The notes beneath the pieces are model-generated. The model saw only the letters and a program-made list of their open reading frames with translations. It ran no database searches and was not told the DNA's origin. Positions 12,077 through 58,059 of a DNA stretch of 64,000 nt are shown here, in pieces (position 1 is the stretch's first letter; each line of letters starts with the position of its first letter). The position numbers were made by a program, and so were the translations under genes. The stretch comes from Bacillota bacterium (GTDB lineage Bacteria > Bacillota > SHA-98 > UBA4971), in contig JBFMGS010000003.1 in NCBI GenBank assembly GCA_040752635.1, forward strand, positions 27,528-91,527, read 5' to 3'.

Positions 12077-12152
12077 TGGTGGAGACGATGGGAATCGAAC
12101 CCACGACCTCGTGAATGCCATTCACGCGCTCTCCCAACTGAGCTACGTCCCC
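12077..12152 (-). tRNA. tRNA-Ala (anticodon GGC), encoded CCA end
   Basis: The minus strand reads GGGGACGTAGCTCAGTTGGGAGAGCGCGTGAATGGCATTCACGAGGTCGTGGGTTCGATTCCCATCGTCTCCACCA. It folds as a cloverleaf by hand: 7-bp acceptor with the G3.U70 Ala identity pair, anticodon loop AU-GGC-AU, and T-loop GGTTCGATTCC. Confidence 0.95.
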
Positions 12153-22661: not shown

Positions 22662-23783
22662 TCAGAACAGGATTTTCTGGCGTCTCATGTGGATGTCCAG
22701 GACGAAGCCGATGGCGATGAGGTTTGCAAGGAGGGAGCTGCCACCGTAGCTCAAGAAAGGAAGCGGGATGCCGGTCACGGGCATGAGACTCATCGTCATG
22801 CCGATGTTGACGAGGATATGGAAGAGGAGCATAGACGCCACACCGGTCGCGACCAGCCGACCGAAAGCGTCCTTTGCTATTGCGGCCACCTGAAGACATC
22901 GCCACAGAATGAACGCGTAAAGCGTCAAGACTACTATGGCGCCGATAAACCCCAGCTCTTCCCCGACCACAGAGAAAATGAAGTCAGTGTGGTGGGCGGG
23001 CAGGAAGTTCAGTCGCGCCTGGGTGCCGTGAAAAAGACCTTTGCCGAAGAATCTTCCTGACCCGATGGCTATGGTGGACTGAATGACGTTGTAACCCGTG
23101 CCGGTAGGATCCGCATACGGGTTTAGGAACGCAAGCAGTCGCGCCCGCTGGTAGTCCTTCAGCACAAAGAAGAACAACGCCGGTGAGGCCAGCGCTCCCA
23201 CACCGACTATCGCCAGCAAGTCCTTTCCTCTTGCCCCCGCCACATATAACATGCCGAGGGTTATTCCGCAGAACACCAGGGCGGTGCCGAGATCGTTCTG
23301 AAGGAGCACGAGCACCATGGGGACCGCGACATGTAGAAACGCCATGGCAAGACCCCGGCGCGACGCCACGTCATCTGCCTCAGCCAGGTGACGGGCAAAG
23401 GTGAGAATGACCGCAACCTTCGCAAGTTCCGAAGGCTGCAGGGCGAGCGGGCCGAGACGAAACCAGCTCTGTGCACCGGAGATGCGCCGCCCCATCACCA
23501 GGACCAACACGAGCATGGTCACATTCACGAAGTACAGCACTTTATGTGCTCTCTCTGCGAGCCTGTAGTCCATGGTGAGGATCATGCCCACGAGGAGCGT
23601 TCCTATGACGAACGCCGTTACTTGCCTCTTTACGAAGTAGAGCGCATCGGGTGGCGAGCCCTGCCCTATACCCCCGCGGGTTGCGCTAAACACAACGGCG
23701 AACCCGATAAAGCACATCGCGAGCACCGCAAGGACAAGCGAGTAATCCAGATTCCTGAGCAAACGCCTCTCAAGGATCACCAT
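22662..23783 (-). CDS. rodA: Rod shape-determining SEDS protein RodA
   Basis: 373 aa of the FtsW/RodA/SpoVE family (...TDFIFSVVGEELGFIG...PLPFLSYGGSSLL). It sits in the mre/min/mrdA context. Confidence 0.85.
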   Translation of the reverse strand: MVILERRLLRNLDYSLVLAVLAMCFIGFAVVFSATRGGIGQGSPPDALYFVKRQVTAFVIGTLLVGMILTMDYRLAERAHKVLYFVNVTMLVLVLVMGRRISGAQSWFRLGPLALQPSELAKVAVILTFARHLAEADDVASRRGLAMAFLHVAVPMVLVLLQNDLGTALVFCGITLGMLYVAGARGKDLLAIVGVGALASPALFFFVLKDYQRARLLAFLNPYADPTGTGYNVIQSTIAIGSGRFFGKGLFHGTQARLNFLPAHHTDFIFSVVGEELGFIGAIVVLTLYAFILWRCLQVAAIAKDAFGRLVATGVASMLLFHILVNIGMTMSLMPVTGIPLPFLSYGGSSLLANLIAIGFVLDIHMRRQKILF

Positions 23784-23806: not shown

Positions 23807-23830
23807 GGGGGGTTGCCGGTGATTGCCCCC
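23807..23830 (+). repeat. Short copy of the GGGGTTGCCGGTG element (GGGGGGTTGCCGGTGATTGCCCCC)
   Basis: It lies between the minE stop (23844) and the rodA start (23783). It matches the GGTTGCCGGTGATTGC arm of the long copies at 28063 and 57808. Confidence 0.7.
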
Positions 23831-25934: not shown

Positions 25935-27956
<2,022 letters not shown>

Positions 27957-28062
27957 AGTCGCTCCCTCCGGATACCCGCACGCACCCGCACGCGTTCACA
28001 TAGCTGGTCGCCAAGTAGTCGTCATTGATTCATGCCGCTTTTCAGCATGCGGTGTCTACCTA

Positions 28063-28384
28063 GGGTTGCCGGTGTCGCATTCCGGGTTCCCACTCGGAGG
28101 GAGGCATACCCCACCCCACTCCTGACGGTACTCGCTCGAAGGTATGGAGGAGGCAGGATCGAGTGCCTCCTATAGTGCCTACCCTAAGGCACGAGATCCG
28201 TCTTGCTTCTCGAAGGGGGGAATACCCCCCTTCCGACGGGTCTTACGACCCTGCCTCCCCCCTACCTTCGAGCGGGTTTGGCGACAGGGTACTGGCCCGC
28301 CCTCTGCAGGGCGCCTCCGGTTAATTCGGCCCGCAGGCATATGGCCGAATTAACAGGCCCCGTCATACAATCACCGGCAACCCC
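28063..28384 (-). repeat. Long copy A (322 nt) of the GGGGTTGCCGGTG-capped structured palindromic element, carrying a nested 161-nt insertion
   Basis: The termini GGGTTGCCGGTGTCGCAT ... ATACAATCACCGGCAACCCC pair with each other. The interior is ~90% identical to 57808-57967 apart from the insertion at 28135-28295. It lies between mreD and mrdA. Confidence 0.85.
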
Positions 28385-28549
28385 AAAGTGGGACGCATTT
28401 CTGAACGAGGCCGTTGGTTTTCTCCACCTACTAATCAAAACGTCCATAGAATGGTGTGTTTATATGCCCTTTAATCCGCGTGGTTTAGTTGATTCCAGAA
28501 TACATCATGCCAGTCGATGGCAAAAACCAGCGGCCTCCTGAACTCCCAC

Positions 28550-29059
28550 TTAGAGGGCGCGGCGGCGATTCGCAGCGCCCCTGGTGTAGAGGTTGATCCG
28601 CGCGACCCCGCTCAGCGCCAGCGGCGCAATCGCCGCTGAATAGGCTGCTTGACACAGCACCACCCGTAAACTGGCTGGAGACACTGACAGGGGCACCCCG
28701 AACGAGGACAGCAGGAAAAGATGCAGGACTCCTCCGAAAACCCCTCCCAGGAAGACGAGCGCAACCGGCACAACGACGCGGTCTTGAAAAACCTTCTCGT
28801 AGGAGAGACTGGCGGCAAGTCCAGTGATGACTCGTGTCAGTATGAATAAGCCAAGGAACTGCCCTGAAGACACATCCTCAAGCAGTCCGGCGAAAAACCC
28901 GACGAAGCCCGCGTCCTTCGCGCCGCCAAGCATGCCCACGAGGACCACATACACCATGACGATGTCAGGCTTCACACCATGTATCGAAACGTAGGGCGCG
29001 ACCGACGCCTCAACCACCACGGCAAGCCCGGCAATCACGGCAAGGATGAAGTGCTTCAT
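28550..29059 (-). CDS. mreD: Rod shape-determining protein MreD
   Basis: A 169-aa polytopic membrane protein directly downstream of, and overlapping, mreC. Confidence 0.8.
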   Translation of the reverse strand: MKHFILAVIAGLAVVVEASVAPYVSIHGVKPDIVMVYVVLVGMLGGAKDAGFVGFFAGLLEDVSSGQFLGLFILTRVITGLAASLSYEKVFQDRVVVPVALVFLGGVFGGVLHLFLLSSFGVPLSVSPASLRVVLCQAAYSAAIAPLALSGVARINLYTRGAANRRRAL

Positions 29060-34701: not shown

Positions 34702-35550
34702 TCACTCGGTACACAAAACTATACCCTGCTCCGCTTGGGGTTGCCGGTGATTGCACGACCCCCTCATCACGATGCACTTCGTCGGGCACTTCTCGACGCA
34801 CTTGCCGCACGCGTCGCACTTCGTCGGGTCGATGACTGCGAGGTTGTTCTCCATGGCGATTGCCTGAGCCGGGCAAACCTTCACGCACAGCCCGCAGCCG
34901 ATGCACCCGATCTTGCACGTCTTGCGCACCTCGGCGCCCCTCGACAGCGATTTGCAGAGCACGGTCACCCGCTGGGACATGGGCACGAGTTCTATGATGC
35001 CCCTCGGGCAGGCCGAAACGCACCTGCCGCAGGCGGTGCACTCCTCCTCATCAACGACGGGGAGACCGTCAGGCCCCATGTAGAGCGCATCGAAGGCGCA
35101 CGCGGAAACGCACGAACCCAGACCGAGACACCCGTACGTACACGCCTTCGGACCGCCCCCCACGAGGTTGGCCGCCTTGCAGTCAGTAAGCCCGTCATAG
35201 GCGAACCTCGAGCCACATTTGTCGGGACTGCCCTGGCAAAAGACCCGGGCCACCTTCCGCTCTCTTGCCGCGCCGACTTCCACACCCATGATCGCGGCGA
35301 CCTTTGCCGCCACCGGGGACCCGCCGACCGGGCACGCATCGACCGGCGCCTTGCCGGCGACTATCGCGCCTGCAAGCCCGCTGCACCCGGGATATCCGCA
35401 ACCGCCGCAGTTGGCCCCCGGTAAAACCCCGGTGATCATGTCCTGCCTGGGATCCTGTTCTATCGCAAACTTCTTCGCGGCGAGCGCAAGCGCGAGGCCA
35501 AACACCGCCCCCATCAGCCCAAGGCTAAGTATTGCTTTAGCGTAGATCAT
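34702..35550 (-). CDS. rnfB: Rnf complex subunit B (polyferredoxin)
   Basis: An N-terminal TM segment, a CGGCGYPGC cluster, and several CxxCxxCxxxCP motifs. The last ~20 codons (..SCNHRQPQAEQGIVLCTE) are encoded by a repeat copy. Confidence 0.85.
   Translation of the reverse strand: MIYAKAILSLGLMGAVFGLALALAAKKFAIEQDPRQDMITGVLPGANCGGCGYPGCSGLAGAIVAGKAPVDACPVGGSPVAAKVAAIMGVEVGAARERKVARVFCQGSPDKCGSRFAYDGLTDCKAANLVGGGPKACTYGCLGLGSCVSACAFDALYMGPDGLPVVDEEECTACGRCVSACPRGIIELVPMSQRVTVLCKSLSRGAEVRKTCKIGCIGCGLCVKVCPAQAIAMENNLAVIDPTKCDACGKCVEKCPTKCIVMRGSCNHRQPQAEQGIVLCTE
34747..34773 (+). repeat. Short copy of the GGGGTTGCCGGTG element (GGGGTTGCCGGTGATTGCACGACCCCC) inside the 3' end of rnfB
   Basis: It matches the GGTTGCCGGTGATTGCATGAC arm of the long copies. 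The preceding CTCCGCTT resembles the TCCCACTT flank of the other copies. Confidence 0.7.
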
Positions 35551-47064: not shown

Positions 47065-47195
47065 ATTGTCACCCCTCGAACCAGGCTCGGGCGACCCTGT
47101 GCGCTCGCTCCCAGTCTGTAGGTAAGGGCGAGCCGAGGTTGCTTCAAAGCCGGCCATCGCAAGTTCGCGCCTTTTCTCGCCAGTGGGTCCCACTT

Positions 47196-47234
47196 GGGGT
47201 TGCCGGTGGTTGCTCGCACACCGCCGGCAACCCC
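47196..47234 (+). repeat. Minimal hairpin copy of the GGGGTTGCCGGTG element
   Basis: GGGGTTGCCGGTGG-[TTGCTCGCACA]-CCGCCGGCAACCCC is a 14-bp stem with one T.G pair. It is preceded by AGTGGG-T-CCCACTT (47182-47195) and lies between fhs and ndk. Confidence 0.8.
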
Positions 47235-47266
47235 TCCAGGGGAAACAAGCATTCTCGCGTGTGGGC

Positions 47267-48964
47267 CTAGAACAGGCCGACGATCTTGCCTTCGTCGTCG
47301 ATATCCACGTTCTCGGCAGCCGGGTGTGTGGGAAGCCCGGGCATGGTCATCATCTGGCCGCAAAGCGGCACTATGAACCCTGCTCCAGCCGACACCCTCA
47401 CCTCGCGGACGTTGAGCTTCCATCCACGTGGCGCGCCCCGCAGGGCCGGGTCGTCGGAGAGCGAGAGCTGCGTCTTGGCCATACAGATGGGGAGGTTGCC
47501 AAGGCCCTGCTCCTCTATAACCTTGATGTCGCGCTCCGCCGTGCCGACATACACGACGCCGTCGGCCCCATAGATCTCCGTCGCGAGAGTCTCGATCTTG
47601 TCCTTGACGGGCACGTCGAGGTCGTATAGGAACCTGAAGTTAGGCTTCTCATGCTCGAGCGCATCGAGCACCGCTTCAGCAAGTTCGATGCCACCCTCTC
47701 CGCCGCGGGCGACGACCTCGGACAATGCCGCGCGTACCCCCAGTTCCTCACAGTGCCTGCGCAGGTACTCAAGCTCCTCCAGGTCATCCGCCGGGAATCT
47801 GTTGATAGCGACTACTACCGGCAGGCCGAACTTCTTCGTCACGTTATGCACGTGCCTATCCAGGTTCGCGCAGCCCTTTGCCAGAGCGTCAAGGTTCTTC
47901 TCCGCGAGCTTGCTCTTGGCCACGCCGCCGTGGTGATGGAGCGCACGCACCGAGGCCACCAGGATCACAACATCAGGACGCACGTCGGTGATGCGGCAAA
48001 TGATATCAAAGAACTTCTCGGCGCCCAGGTCCGCGGCAAAACCGCCTTCAGTGACCGCATAGTCCGCGAGCCGAAGGGCGGTCTCGGTGGCGATTATGGA
48101 GTTGTTGCCGTATGCGATGTTCGCAAACGGCGCACCGTGCACGAACGCGGGTTGACCTTCTAGGGTTTGCACTAGGTTAGGCTTGATCGTGTCTTTCATG
48201 ATGACCGCCATGGCGCCCACGGCCTTGAGGTCAGATGCACGCACGGGCTTTCCCTCGAAGGTGTAAGCCACCACGAGCCTCGATAGCCGCTCTTTCAAGT
48301 CAGAGAGCGAGCGCGAGAGCCCCAGGCACGCCATAACCTCAGACGCCACCGTGATGTCGAACCCGCTCTCCATCGGAAATCCGTTCGCCTTGCCGCCCAG
48401 GCCGACGATGATGTTCCGCAGTTGCCTGTCGCTGATGTCCATGACGCGCCGCCACACCACGCGCCTGGGATCTATGCCGAGCTCGTTCCCCTGGTGGATG
48501 TGGTTCTCCACCATTGCAGCAAGCAGGTTATGAGCCGCGCCCACGGCGTGGATGTCGCCTGTAAAGTGGAGGTTGATGTCTTCCATCGGAAGCACCTGCG
48601 AGTATCCTCCGCCCGCCGCTCCGCCTTTGATCCCGAACGTGGGCCCGAGCGAAGGCTCGCGGAGCGCCACCATGACCTTTTTGCCCAGCTTACCCAGGGC
48701 CTGGGTGACCCCCACCGCCGTGCAGGTTTTGCCTTCCCCGGCCGGAGTCGCGGTTATCGCAGTGGTGTAGATCAGTTTGCCGTACGGGCGGCCCTTGAGC
48801 CTCTGGATCGCCTCAATGCTGACCTTGGCCTTGTACTTGCCGTAGAATTCGATGTCGTCCTCACAGAGGCCCACCTTTGCGGCGATCTCCGCGATGGGCC
48901 GCAGCTTTGCGCTTTGCGCAATCTCGATGTCCGGGGGAATTCTGCCCAAGCTTGCTACTGCCAT
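47267..48964 (-). CDS. fhs: Formate--tetrahydrofolate ligase
   Basis: 565 aa: ..DIEIAQ....I.EIA...G......[20 protein letters not shown]-like ([14 protein letters not shown]), [17 protein letters not shown]. Confidence 0.95.
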
Positions 48965-56390: not shown

Positions 56391-57734
56391 CTACGCCCCC
56401 CATCTTGTCTTCACAAAGGACGGAATCCCGCTTGACTCGCGGGGACCCACCATCACTTCCCAACCGGACTTCTCCTCCAGCTTGCCGCTCATGGCGGCCA
56501 CGTAGCCCGGAAGGATAACCTTGCGGTGGCGGACTTTGTCAGAGACCCCCGACGAGGCAAGCGCGTCCGCGATTTTCTCCGCGGTGAACTTGCCTGCCGC
56601 CCAGGCGGTGAGCACCGACGTGCCTTCCGTGTCTATCACGAGAAGATGAGACGGCACACGACTCGCCTCAATGTCCCCCTGAACAGTGAAGAACGTCAGC
56701 GAGAAGTTGCTCGTGACGTAGAGCGGCGAATCAGGCCCGGCCTCCCCGCCGATGCTGTAGAGCTTCGCCTCGACCTGTATCGGCTTCTGAGGATCAGTGT
56801 AGATGTTCTGGCGCAGAGTAACAAGGGGAAGCACCTGCCACCTCTGGAACGACCGCATCATCACGATCGCCGCGTATTTCGCGATATACACCCCAGCCTC
56901 GGCGATCTGAAGCTCGGGGTCTTCTGATGCCACGAACGCCATAGCGGGATATCCGAATGGGCGGAACTTCTTCTTTATCGCAAGGCGCCTGATCTGGGTC
57001 AGGTCGGCGAGCGTTCGCGCCAGGGTGCGGCCGCCGGCGTCAAGGACGATGTCCTTGCAACCCGCAGCCGCAACCTTTGCCGAAAGGTCTGCAAGCTCCG
57101 AAAGGTCCTTGCTGCGGACAGCAACAGGGCAACCTGTTGACTTCCCAAGCTCCGCCATGCCTTCATAGTTGCTCGCGGTTGCGGCGTAGAGAAGGGGTTT
57201 ATCCTTCGCCACCACGTCGAGCCCGGCCTTCATCACTCCGGGGTCTTCAGTCATCAGGACGAGCGGCAATGACGTAGCCTCCCGAACCGCCGCGACTGCC
57301 TCACGGAACTTTGCGGCGTCGCCCGTATCGCTCCTCACCCCTATGAGGTTCACCCGGAGGCGTTGCCCAACGCGCTCAAACTCAAGCGAAGAGATCTCCC
57401 TGGCCTTCTCCCTCAGTGTCTCCGGCCCTTCGGAGTCGCCCAGCTCAAACCCCAGCCCTGTCTCGTGGAAAAACGTCTTGTCATGGCGGAAGAGCACCGT
57501 CTCGTCGCCTACGTCCAGCTTCGCGTCGCCCGCCCCAATAGTCACCAGCCTGATAGGTGGTGCGGACGCCGACTCGAGCGCTGCTCTCGCCTCCTCCGAG
57601 ACGTACGGGCAGGCGTCAAGAGATGCCTTGCCCGCCGCAAGAGCCATGGCAAATGCAAGACAGGTGGGAGGTCCGCACTCCCGGCAGTTCTTCTTGGGTA
57701 GAAGCTTGTATATCTCCAGCCCTGTAAGCCCCAT
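56391..57734 (-). CDS. acsC: Corrinoid iron-sulfur protein large subunit
   Basis: MGLTGLEIYKLLPKKNCRECGPPTCLAFAMALA is the [4Fe-4S] N-terminus. The ATG at 57734 is 6 nt after AGGAGG. The ORF-track extension to 57860 runs into repeat copy B. Confidence 0.9.
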   Translation of the reverse strand: MGLTGLEIYKLLPKKNCRECGPPTCLAFAMALAAGKASLDACPYVSEEARAALESASAPPIRLVTIGAGDAKLDVGDETVLFRHDKTFFHETGLGFELGDSEGPETLREKAREISSLEFERVGQRLRVNLIGVRSDTGDAAKFREAVAAVREATSLPLVLMTEDPGVMKAGLDVVAKDKPLLYAATASNYEGMAELGKSTGCPVAVRSKDLSELADLSAKVAAAGCKDIVLDAGGRTLARTLADLTQIRRLAIKKKFRPFGYPAMAFVASEDPELQIAEAGVYIAKYAAIVMMRSFQRWQVLPLVTLRQNIYTDPQKPIQVEAKLYSIGGEAGPDSPLYVTSNFSLTFFTVQGDIEASRVPSHLLVIDTEGTSVLTAWAAGKFTAEKIADALASSGVSDKVRHRKVILPGYVAAMSGKLEEKSGWEVMVGPRESSGIPSFVKTRWGA

Positions 57735-57807
57735 ACACATCCTCCTTTTTCGCACCCAAGTTGATACACGAGGGCATTTGCCACTTTGCAGCGTATCAGC
57801 CTTGCCC

Positions 57808-57967
57808 GGGGTTGCCGGTGTTGCATTCCGGGTTCCCACTCGGAGGGAGGCATACCCCACCCCGGTCCTGACGGTACTCGCCCGCCCTCTGCAGGGCGCC
57901 TCCGATTAATTCGGCCCGCCGGCAGATGGCCGAATTAATAGGCCCCGTCATGCAATCACCGGCAACC
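57808..57967 (-). repeat. Long copy B (160 nt) of the GGGGTTGCCGGTG-capped structured palindromic element
   Basis: A closing helix of ~17 bp (57811-57826 with 57950-57967). Internal hairpins include a 12-bp stem ATTAATTCGGCC/GGCCGAATTAAT (57905-57939) and GCCCT-CTGC-AGGGC. It is flanked by CCACTTTG (57781-88) and CAAAGTGG (57973-80) and lies between acsB and acsC. Confidence 0.85.
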
Positions 57968-58059
57968 TCTGACAAAGTGGCATAGGCTTCTCGTGATCGA
58001 CTCATTACAAGACACTCGTCCTCGCTCCTGTGCGCCTATCGGCGAACGTCTATGGCCAG

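Follow-up and report, generated by a model that had tools for sequence, protein, structure and literature searches.

The 593-nt spacer between mreD and mrdA in the window, by which we mean the whole 64,000-nucleotide stretch of DNA analysed here, is covered over about 540 nt by one copy of a multicopy interspersed palindromic element of uncultured Bacillota from anaerobic bioreactors. We consider it likely that this element represents an undescribed family of MITEs, which duplicates a TA dinucleotide at its insertion site and is probably mobilised by an enzyme of the IS630/Tc1 type.

Elements in the window and their relatives

The original prediction had taken positions 28063-28384 (copy A) as its object and had compared them with a second long copy (B) and with a hairpin at 47196 (copy C). 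This stretch is a real feature, but it is only the inner core of a larger element, which extends over about 28011-28553 and carries two nested insertions. The features delimited in the window are the following:

28011-28553, plus strand: copy A, whole composite, delimited by the family consensus and the termini, with its outer end at 28553
28063-28384, plus strand: inner core of copy A, with the inner inverted repeat GGGTTGCCGGTG / CACCGGCAACCC at its limits and nested insert 1 inside
28135-28284, plus strand: nested insert 1, about 150 nt, absent from copy B in the A/B alignment, with its own 32-nt inverted repeat
28296-28315, plus strand: G+C-rich hairpin CGCCCT-CTGC-AGGGCG, identical in A and B and matching family helices 4 and 5
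28320-28354, plus strand: AT-rich 12-bp hairpin, family helix 7
28407-28537, plus strand: nested module 2, 131 nt with an AT-rich middle, in the right arm, with ends GAGGCCGTTGGTTTT / AAAAACCAGCGGCCTC
28550-28552, minus strand: mreD stop codon TAA, made of the flanking TA and the first base of the element (TAG within CTAG in relatives)
57756-57995, plus strand: copy B, whole element without nested inserts, core at 57809-57969, the arms pairing together
47145-47270, strand sign left as a dot (.): copy C, a short form in which both arms and both inner repeats are kept (hairpin 47196-47234) and the central hairpins are absent
34737-34765, minus strand: solo right-end fragment, GGGGTTGCCGGTGATTGCACGACCCCC on the plus strand
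23808-23830, minus strand: another solo right-end fragment, which reads GGGGGTTGCCGGTGATTGCCCCC on the plus strand and is located about 25 nt upstream of where gene 22662-23783 starts

Copy A lies in an operon on the minus strand and its ends read, from left to right, C-CA-AGTAGTCG... and ...TCCCACT-TA-G. It corresponds to a B-like base element plus two nested inserts. Copy B, of about 235 nt, is flanked by C-CA (57756-57758) and CA-T (57993-57995) and is located just upstream, on the minus strand, of the gene of a corrinoid Fe-S protein (56391-57734). By direct reading and with a script, we found that 28063-28384 and 57809-57969 do align end to end but for one internal insertion in A. The 12-bp stems of the AT-rich hairpin (GTTAATTCGGCC/GGCCGAATTAAC in A, ATTAATTCGGCC/GGCCGAATTAAT in B) are both perfect and differ solely by their closing pair, which is G28320:C28354 in A and A57905:T57939 in B, exactly the double substitution that had been proposed.

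Copy C is located between the end of gene 47267-48964 and ndk, and similar short forms also occur in four of the collected loci (L130, L131, L208 and L222). This copy had been judged to be inverted relative to A and B; its bulged inner repeat and its inner flank make this plausible and we retain it as probable, but the covariance model scores the two strands nearly equally (24.3 versus 23.3 bits). A search of the window with this model found A, B and C alone. The element model also gives a weak match at 57023-57075 (18.9 bits, E = 0.05, on both strands), within the gene of the corrinoid Fe-S protein; this palindromic, G+C-rich match is probably due to chance. The sole match of the window to Rfam at the gathering score is a tRNA gene (12080-12152, minus strand). 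A hexanucleotide repeat, (GCTCAG)n, was also noticed on the plus strand at 27906-27945, at the 5' end of mrdA; its minus-strand reading is an N-terminal (QA)n run in PBP2, of which the collected locus L249 has a shorter, imperfect version.

Relatives were gathered by pattern scans, whose search patterns account in part for the invariance of the inner repeat. The pattern used on a collection of genomes, GGTTGCCGGTGNTTG, has 14 specified bases and is unspecific: the listed matches are mostly due to chance, seven or eight loci are useful, and among the matches listed copies occur in four MAGs that carry the label Bacillota or Firmicutes. In metagenome contigs, a pattern scan gave at least 120 loci, most of them from assemblies of anaerobic bioreactors or digesters and often with several copies per contig, the 675-kb contig UPAD01000003.1 carrying at least five. 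One similarity cluster contains, among the matches listed, 107 copies of fully consistent orientation with 88 distinct cores, most of which measure 110-112 nt. A covariance model was built from 81 cores. Over 618 kb it detected 118 copies, none of them on both strands, and some of these have degenerate inner repeats.

Conservation reaches about 50 nt past the inner repeat on both sides. The full unit measures 197-215 nt, its consensus ends are CTAAGTA...TACTTAG and as a whole it forms an imperfect palindrome, with outer inverted ends AGT...ACT, an inner conserved inverted repeat GGTTGCCGGTG / CACCGGCAACC and, at the centre, a three-way junction bearing a G+C-rich hairpin and an AT-rich hairpin. 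Terminal inverted repeats are present, AGTATGTCGCCA.../...TGGCGCCATACT in one subfamily and AGTGAGGGTGC.../...GCACCCTCACT in another, and the ends covary between subfamilies; presumably they resemble the inverted repeat of Tc1. In a further subfamily (L242:10186-10240, L192:370-410) the outer end is tandemly duplicated, CTAAGTAGATCGCCA-TAAGTGATCGCCAG..., so that the ends can be read in two registers. The unit is short and non-coding, and no ORF of transposase size fits in it, whether in its typical form or in the composite A. The family has no match in Rfam 15 at the gathering score, and no copies were detected in the plasmids, phages and viral contigs that were searched.

That all this could be a chance similarity or an assembly artefact, with no biological unit behind it, has a negligible probability in our opinion. 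Metagenome assemblies do break at these repeats, and three Logan contigs from near-identical strains (L002, L003 and L244, from SRR32167787 and SRR6186653) end inside A or B. The repeats thus fragment the assemblies of the window organism, and some copies could be mis-joined. Nevertheless, the inner motif GGTTGCCGGTG occurs 10 times in the window with at most one mismatch, when 1.9 occurrences are expected from shuffles, and more than 100 copies from independent projects and assemblers share a conserved architecture and covariation. Moreover, the same copy A is found at the same locus in an independent NCBI MAG (GCA_049323215.1, contig JBMOMA010000156.1), with 99.7% identity over 346 nt.

Insertion sites and nested elements

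Copies are dispersed, and they are present or absent between related genomes, as seen from filled and empty sites. When the dinucleotides flanking 62 distinct elements were compared, TA was found on both sides in 33 cases. Seven elements deviate at both ends and in all seven the deviation is direct (CA/CA in four, TG/TG in three), for about 1.6 expected from the single-end frequencies, the inverted combination CA/TG being found in none; copy B is a CA/CA case. Outside the dinucleotide, the bases are C...G in 57 of the 62. In a statistical sense, and with few deviant cases, the flanking dinucleotide therefore behaves as a putative 2-bp target duplication at a CTAG-like site.

Elements of the IS630 family insert at TA with a 2-bp duplication, a hallmark of the IS630/Tc1/mariner group (PMC2170065), and a preferential transposition to the TA of 5'-CTAG-3' is attributed to Tenzen & Ohtsubo (1991) where PMC2170065 cites them. 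Bacterial MITEs measure about 100-200 bp, often have TA at their termini and give transcripts that form long stem-loops (PMC2229807). By analogy, a transposase acting in trans would insert the element at TA, preferably in CTAG, and would duplicate the TA. In these G+C-rich genomes CTAG sites would often contain the TAG stop of a gene, whose end would then become TAA.

The mreD-mrdA spacer illustrates this last point. It measures 96, 87 and 248 nt in relatives whose MreD is 89%, 61% and 53% identical to that of the window, against 593 nt in the window. In these three relatives (L249:2008-2010, L250 and L251) mreD ends with a TAG within CTAG, whereas the window reads ...CTC-TA-AGTGGG at this place, with a TAA stop. 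From this comparison of sequences, the insertion of the element appears to have rewritten the stop codon of mreD from TAG to TAA. In L249, the closest of the three, 42 nt stand in place of window positions 28013-28551; copy A thus has one clean junction only, and on the other side these 42 nt of the L249 spacer are without counterpart in the window. In another pair, L226 (filled) and L138 (with a spacer of 12 nt), the junction is again at a stop codon. Of 76 element termini, 10 provide the TAA that closes, in frame, an ORF of 200 codons or more.

A search for empty sites with joined 60-nt flanks returned one spurious match; wider flanks led to the pair L226/L138 and to a comparison of L231 with the window. 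In the latter, one orthologous site has received independent insertions in opposite orientations, a complete element in L231 and, in the window, the one left as the fragment at 34737. This fragment lies inside the last 20 codons or so of ORF 34702-35550, which encodes a Cys-rich ferredoxin-like protein; the C-terminal tails of this protein and of that of L231 (1990-2030) diverge after a conserved ...KCIVM, and each is partly encoded by the repeat. Strains lacking B or C were sought by exact-protein look-ups; every match either had the same insertion state or lay on a contig that stops in the repeat.

The window and the collected loci (about 1.4 Mb) yielded neither an autonomous element nor a transposase with matching ends. 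Distant pairs of outer ends, considered as candidate autonomous parents, turned out to be neighbouring separate copies or to enclose ordinary genes, e.g. an aldo/keto reductase. The first 30 kb of pCP301 were also searched for an IS630 transposase that could serve as query, and contained none.

Both insertions of copy A are small elements in their own right or modules. Insert 1 lies between the two copies of a 9-bp direct repeat, GGTACTCGC (28126-28134) and GGTACTGGC (28285-28293), and carries a central GAAGGGGGGAATACCCCCCTTC hairpin. It is a second small element, unrelated to the one that hosts it, and copy B represents its empty site. No further copies of it were found among the collected loci. 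When A and B were scanned permissively against Rfam, B had no match and A had a single sub-threshold one, on the central hairpin of insert 1 (DUF3800-XI, 19.6 bits for a gathering score of 37.8, E = 0.049).

Module 2 is flanked by CTGAAC (28401-28406 and 28538-28543). Modules of the same kind, with ends GAGRCYG...CRGYCTC and a flanking repeat of 5-6 bp (CTGAAC in the window, GTGCAG in L228), occupy the equivalent position of the arm in L228, L205/L168, L151 and L128, which represent several subfamilies. Their approximate positions are:

L228, 1863-1975: module-2-like
L205, 5699-5835: module-2-like
L151, 6270-6390: module-2-like
L128, near 6929: module-2-like

Module 2, a third kind of mini-element, is either site-specific for this arm sequence or an old optional module.

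Pairing, strand and selection

The 118 copies, 97 of which are distinct, were aligned with a hand-set structure and the covariance model. This replaced RNAalifold on plain MAFFT alignments, which gave poor structures, with subfamilies one column out of register. In the 97 distinct sequences 93.9% of the cells pair and 17 of the 39 pairs change on both sides. Since the alignment is fitted to the structure the percentage of pairing leans high, and more weight can be given to the covariation controls: the score is 0.158, for 0.097 in shuffles (none of 500 reach it) and 0.03-0.06 with slid partners. The idea that the helices are kept by compensatory change therefore holds at the level of the family. 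The AT-rich stem covaries at seven of its nine pairs, with G:C, A:U, U:A and C:G as alternatives across subfamilies, so that the closing pair that distinguishes A from B is typical of the family. In one prolific subfamily the G+C-rich hairpin is degraded (GGCGCGTGCGGTGAG...), which indicates that not every helix is required.

The stems differ in sequence between subfamilies while pairing is kept, and this makes a folded strand or an extruded cruciform likelier than the sequence-specific recognition of duplex DNA. A single-stranded fold had been preferred to duplex DNA or a peptide from the start; the conserved pairing agrees equally with a folded strand and with an extruded cruciform, and favours neither strand. 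The two strands of copy B fold equally well and far better than shuffles, at -110.2 kcal/mol for one (z = -4.64) and -118.1 kcal/mol for the other (z = -4.91).

Initially, the strand argument rested on three imperfect pairs. In the terminal helix of A, C28076 faces A28369 and C28078 faces A28367, which are C.A on the plus strand and G.U on the minus strand, and the sole imperfect pair of the hairpin 47196-47234 is T47207.G47223; if copy C is inverted, the three wobbles fall on the same strand of the element. These pairs are as described, but the conclusion drawn from them did not withstand the count. The chance of such a concordance had been put at 1 in 8; it is in fact 1 in 4, since no strand was chosen in advance. 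Two changes had in addition been left uncounted: the private change G57809.T57968 of copy B is a plus-strand wobble, on the strand opposite to that of A, and brings the split to 3 to 1, which is uninformative, and the adjacent changes 28118-28119 of A break a possible CCGGG/CCCGG helix seen in B. Furthermore, position 28076 is the sole difference between copy A and the contig JBMOMA010000156.1 over the 346 nt compared (C in the window, T in the MAG). As it is the only difference between near-identical strains, C28076 must either be an error or have arisen very recently as a SNP, and it is no long-selected state.

At the level of the family, recent mismatch types (found in at most two of the 97 distinct sequences) comprise 32 plus-strand G.T, 29 A.C, i.e. 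wobbles of the minus strand, and 59 that pair on neither. The split between 32 and 29 is even (p = 0.80) and so is the split by site (31 versus 32). When a strand-symmetric fold without G.U was used and the 1x1 mismatches were classified, we obtained 16 versus 22-25, with 37-67 others; a close subfamily gave 8 versus 13 wobble-type changes and 8 disruptive ones. When all cells are counted, plus-strand G.T is in excess (144 versus 98); this was rejected as evidence, because it comes from three subfamily-level columns in the doubtful part of the G+C-rich hairpin and from an alignment that rewards G-U. There is thus no sign that one strand, e.g. an RNA, is selected. The original prediction had itself named an even distribution of such changes between the strands as a refutation, so that its argument from strand-consistent wobbles is unsupported and, on its own terms, refuted.

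These counts bear directly on the possibility that the element is a structured RNA acting from one strand, as a cis-regulatory or processing element such as an RNase III target or a stabiliser in operons like mreBCD-mrdA, which we hold to be very unlikely. A and B each belong to a transcription unit of the minus strand, immediately upstream of mrdA and of the gene of the corrinoid protein, respectively, and so are probably co-transcribed; the two private changes of A would be G.U in such a transcript, and both strands fold far better than shuffles. RNA hairpins of Correia/NEMIS and ERIC elements have moreover been reported to affect neighbouring mRNAs (PMC2229807). Against it stand the even counts of wobble-type changes in cells and in sites, the strain-level SNP at 28076 and the opposite-strand wobble of B. 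The stems are not depleted of private substitutions either, the elements occur in both orientations relative to genes (tandem in 14 versus 9 cases, convergent in 7 and divergent in 4, with crude ORF calls), the neighbouring genes are functionally unrelated and Rfam holds no match. A role of copy A as an intrinsic terminator or a promoter was also considered and discarded, as we saw no consensus sites for either. An effect on the mre-mrdA operon, e.g. by a putative processing of the co-transcribed hairpin, is possible.

We then compared private and shared changes in 43 close relatives. Private (singleton) substitutions amount to 0.40 per stem column and 0.39 per loop column, whereas shared variants amount to 0.27 per stem column versus 1.00 per loop column. 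The ratio of transitions to transversions among singletons is 14:8 in stems and 7:5 in loops; these counts are low (22 and 12), and assembly errors may be among them. As private substitutions are equally frequent in stems and loops, inserted copies, A included, seem to drift neutrally, and the C.A "wobbles" of A are ordinary neutral transitions. These results suggest that pairing matters for the spread of the element and not for the upkeep of each inserted copy. That pairing is held in multiplying lineages while inserted copies drift argues against a host-level RNA role of each copy, and this pattern fits a need for symmetry or folding during spread.

Cut-and-paste transposition by a DDE enzyme needs the ends alone, so it does not by itself explain the covarying internal hairpins. 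A folded or extruded hairpin may aid transposition. A stronger version, in which spread would require a folded single strand or an extruded cruciform, whether by a hairpin-dependent mobilisation (REPIN-like or new) or with the fold being essential to an IS630-type reaction, appears rather unlikely to us; stop-codon targeting (TAG to TAA) and the layered nesting of mini-elements would be added features in that case. We give somewhat less credit still to a REPIN-like or otherwise hairpin-dependent element with a folded single-stranded DNA intermediate, mobilised by a tyrosine or HUH transposase (of the RAYT / IS200-IS605 type, or another enzyme). Its hairpins would themselves be the substrate, which would account for the covariation, and compensatory changes across the hairpin are described as common in REPINs (PMC3116915). 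The unit does form a palindrome, long though imperfect, solo ends and short hairpin forms occur, the internal hairpins keep their pairing without conservation of sequence and the constraint is visible only in proliferating lineages. However, a tblastn search of the window and the collected loci with E. coli RayT, a distant query on a small sample, gave a best E of 1.7, and the wobble counts are strand-symmetric. The element also has true terminal inverted repeats and a duplicated-looking dinucleotide, whereas terminal inverted repeats and a target duplication are not expected for transposition of the IS200/IS605 type.

Mobilisation by a transposase of the IS630/Tc1 superfamily is what we infer; what the data show is that pairing is maintained in the multiplying lineages and that the inserted copies then decay neutrally. 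The closing pair of the AT-rich stem, G:C in A and A:T in B, is in this reading a difference between source lineages.

Significance and comparison with known systems

Units of this family fill long unexplained spacers in essential operons, rewrite stop codons from TAG to TAA and interrupt metagenome assemblies in this clade. Once recognised, they need no longer be mistaken for riboswitches or small RNAs. The family also shows mini-elements nested within one another and is a clean case of two layers of selection, with pairing held in the source lineages and neutral decay after insertion. If the fold is really needed for transposition, the family would be informative on the way in which the two ends of a very short element are joined up.

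Several known systems resemble these units. Integron attC sites, whose consensus is RYYYAAC/GTTRRRY, were considered and set aside, since the ends of the element do not fit this consensus and the copies are not in cassette arrays. REPINs, which are doublets of REP sequences mobilised by RAYT, share with the window family long imperfect hairpins, two-sided compensatory changes and the existence of single "half" units, and they persist as populations within genomes (PMC3116915). The window family differs from them by its duplicated flanking dinucleotide, by its true terminal inverted repeats and by its host, which belongs to the Bacillota. The Correia/NEMIS elements of Neisseria and the ERIC/IRU elements of enterobacteria are likewise palindromes of 100-200 nt with TA termini, found inside operons, with long and short forms that arise by internal insertion or deletion. 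REPINs have been described mainly in Proteobacteria. The transcripts of Correia/NEMIS and ERIC/IRU form hairpins that can be processed (PMC2229807), but these elements belong to another host phylum and are unrelated in sequence, and copy A showed neither an IHF-type nor a promoter-like motif.

The closest resemblance is with RUP of Streptococcus pneumoniae, an element of 107 bp thought to be mobilised by IS630-Spn1 (PMC2229807), and with IS630-related MITEs. As in these elements, the units are small, non-coding, multicopy and mostly intergenic, with terminal inverted repeats next to a TA; a flanking dinucleotide that behaves as a 2-bp duplication, the long stem-loop fold and the CTAG context, as for IS630, are also common to both (PMC2229807, PMC2170065). 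The window family is not known to resemble RUP in sequence, and no cognate IS was found for it in the window and the collected loci. Unlike RUP, it is about twice as long, has a conserved inner inverted repeat and two covarying internal hairpins, and hosts nested small elements.
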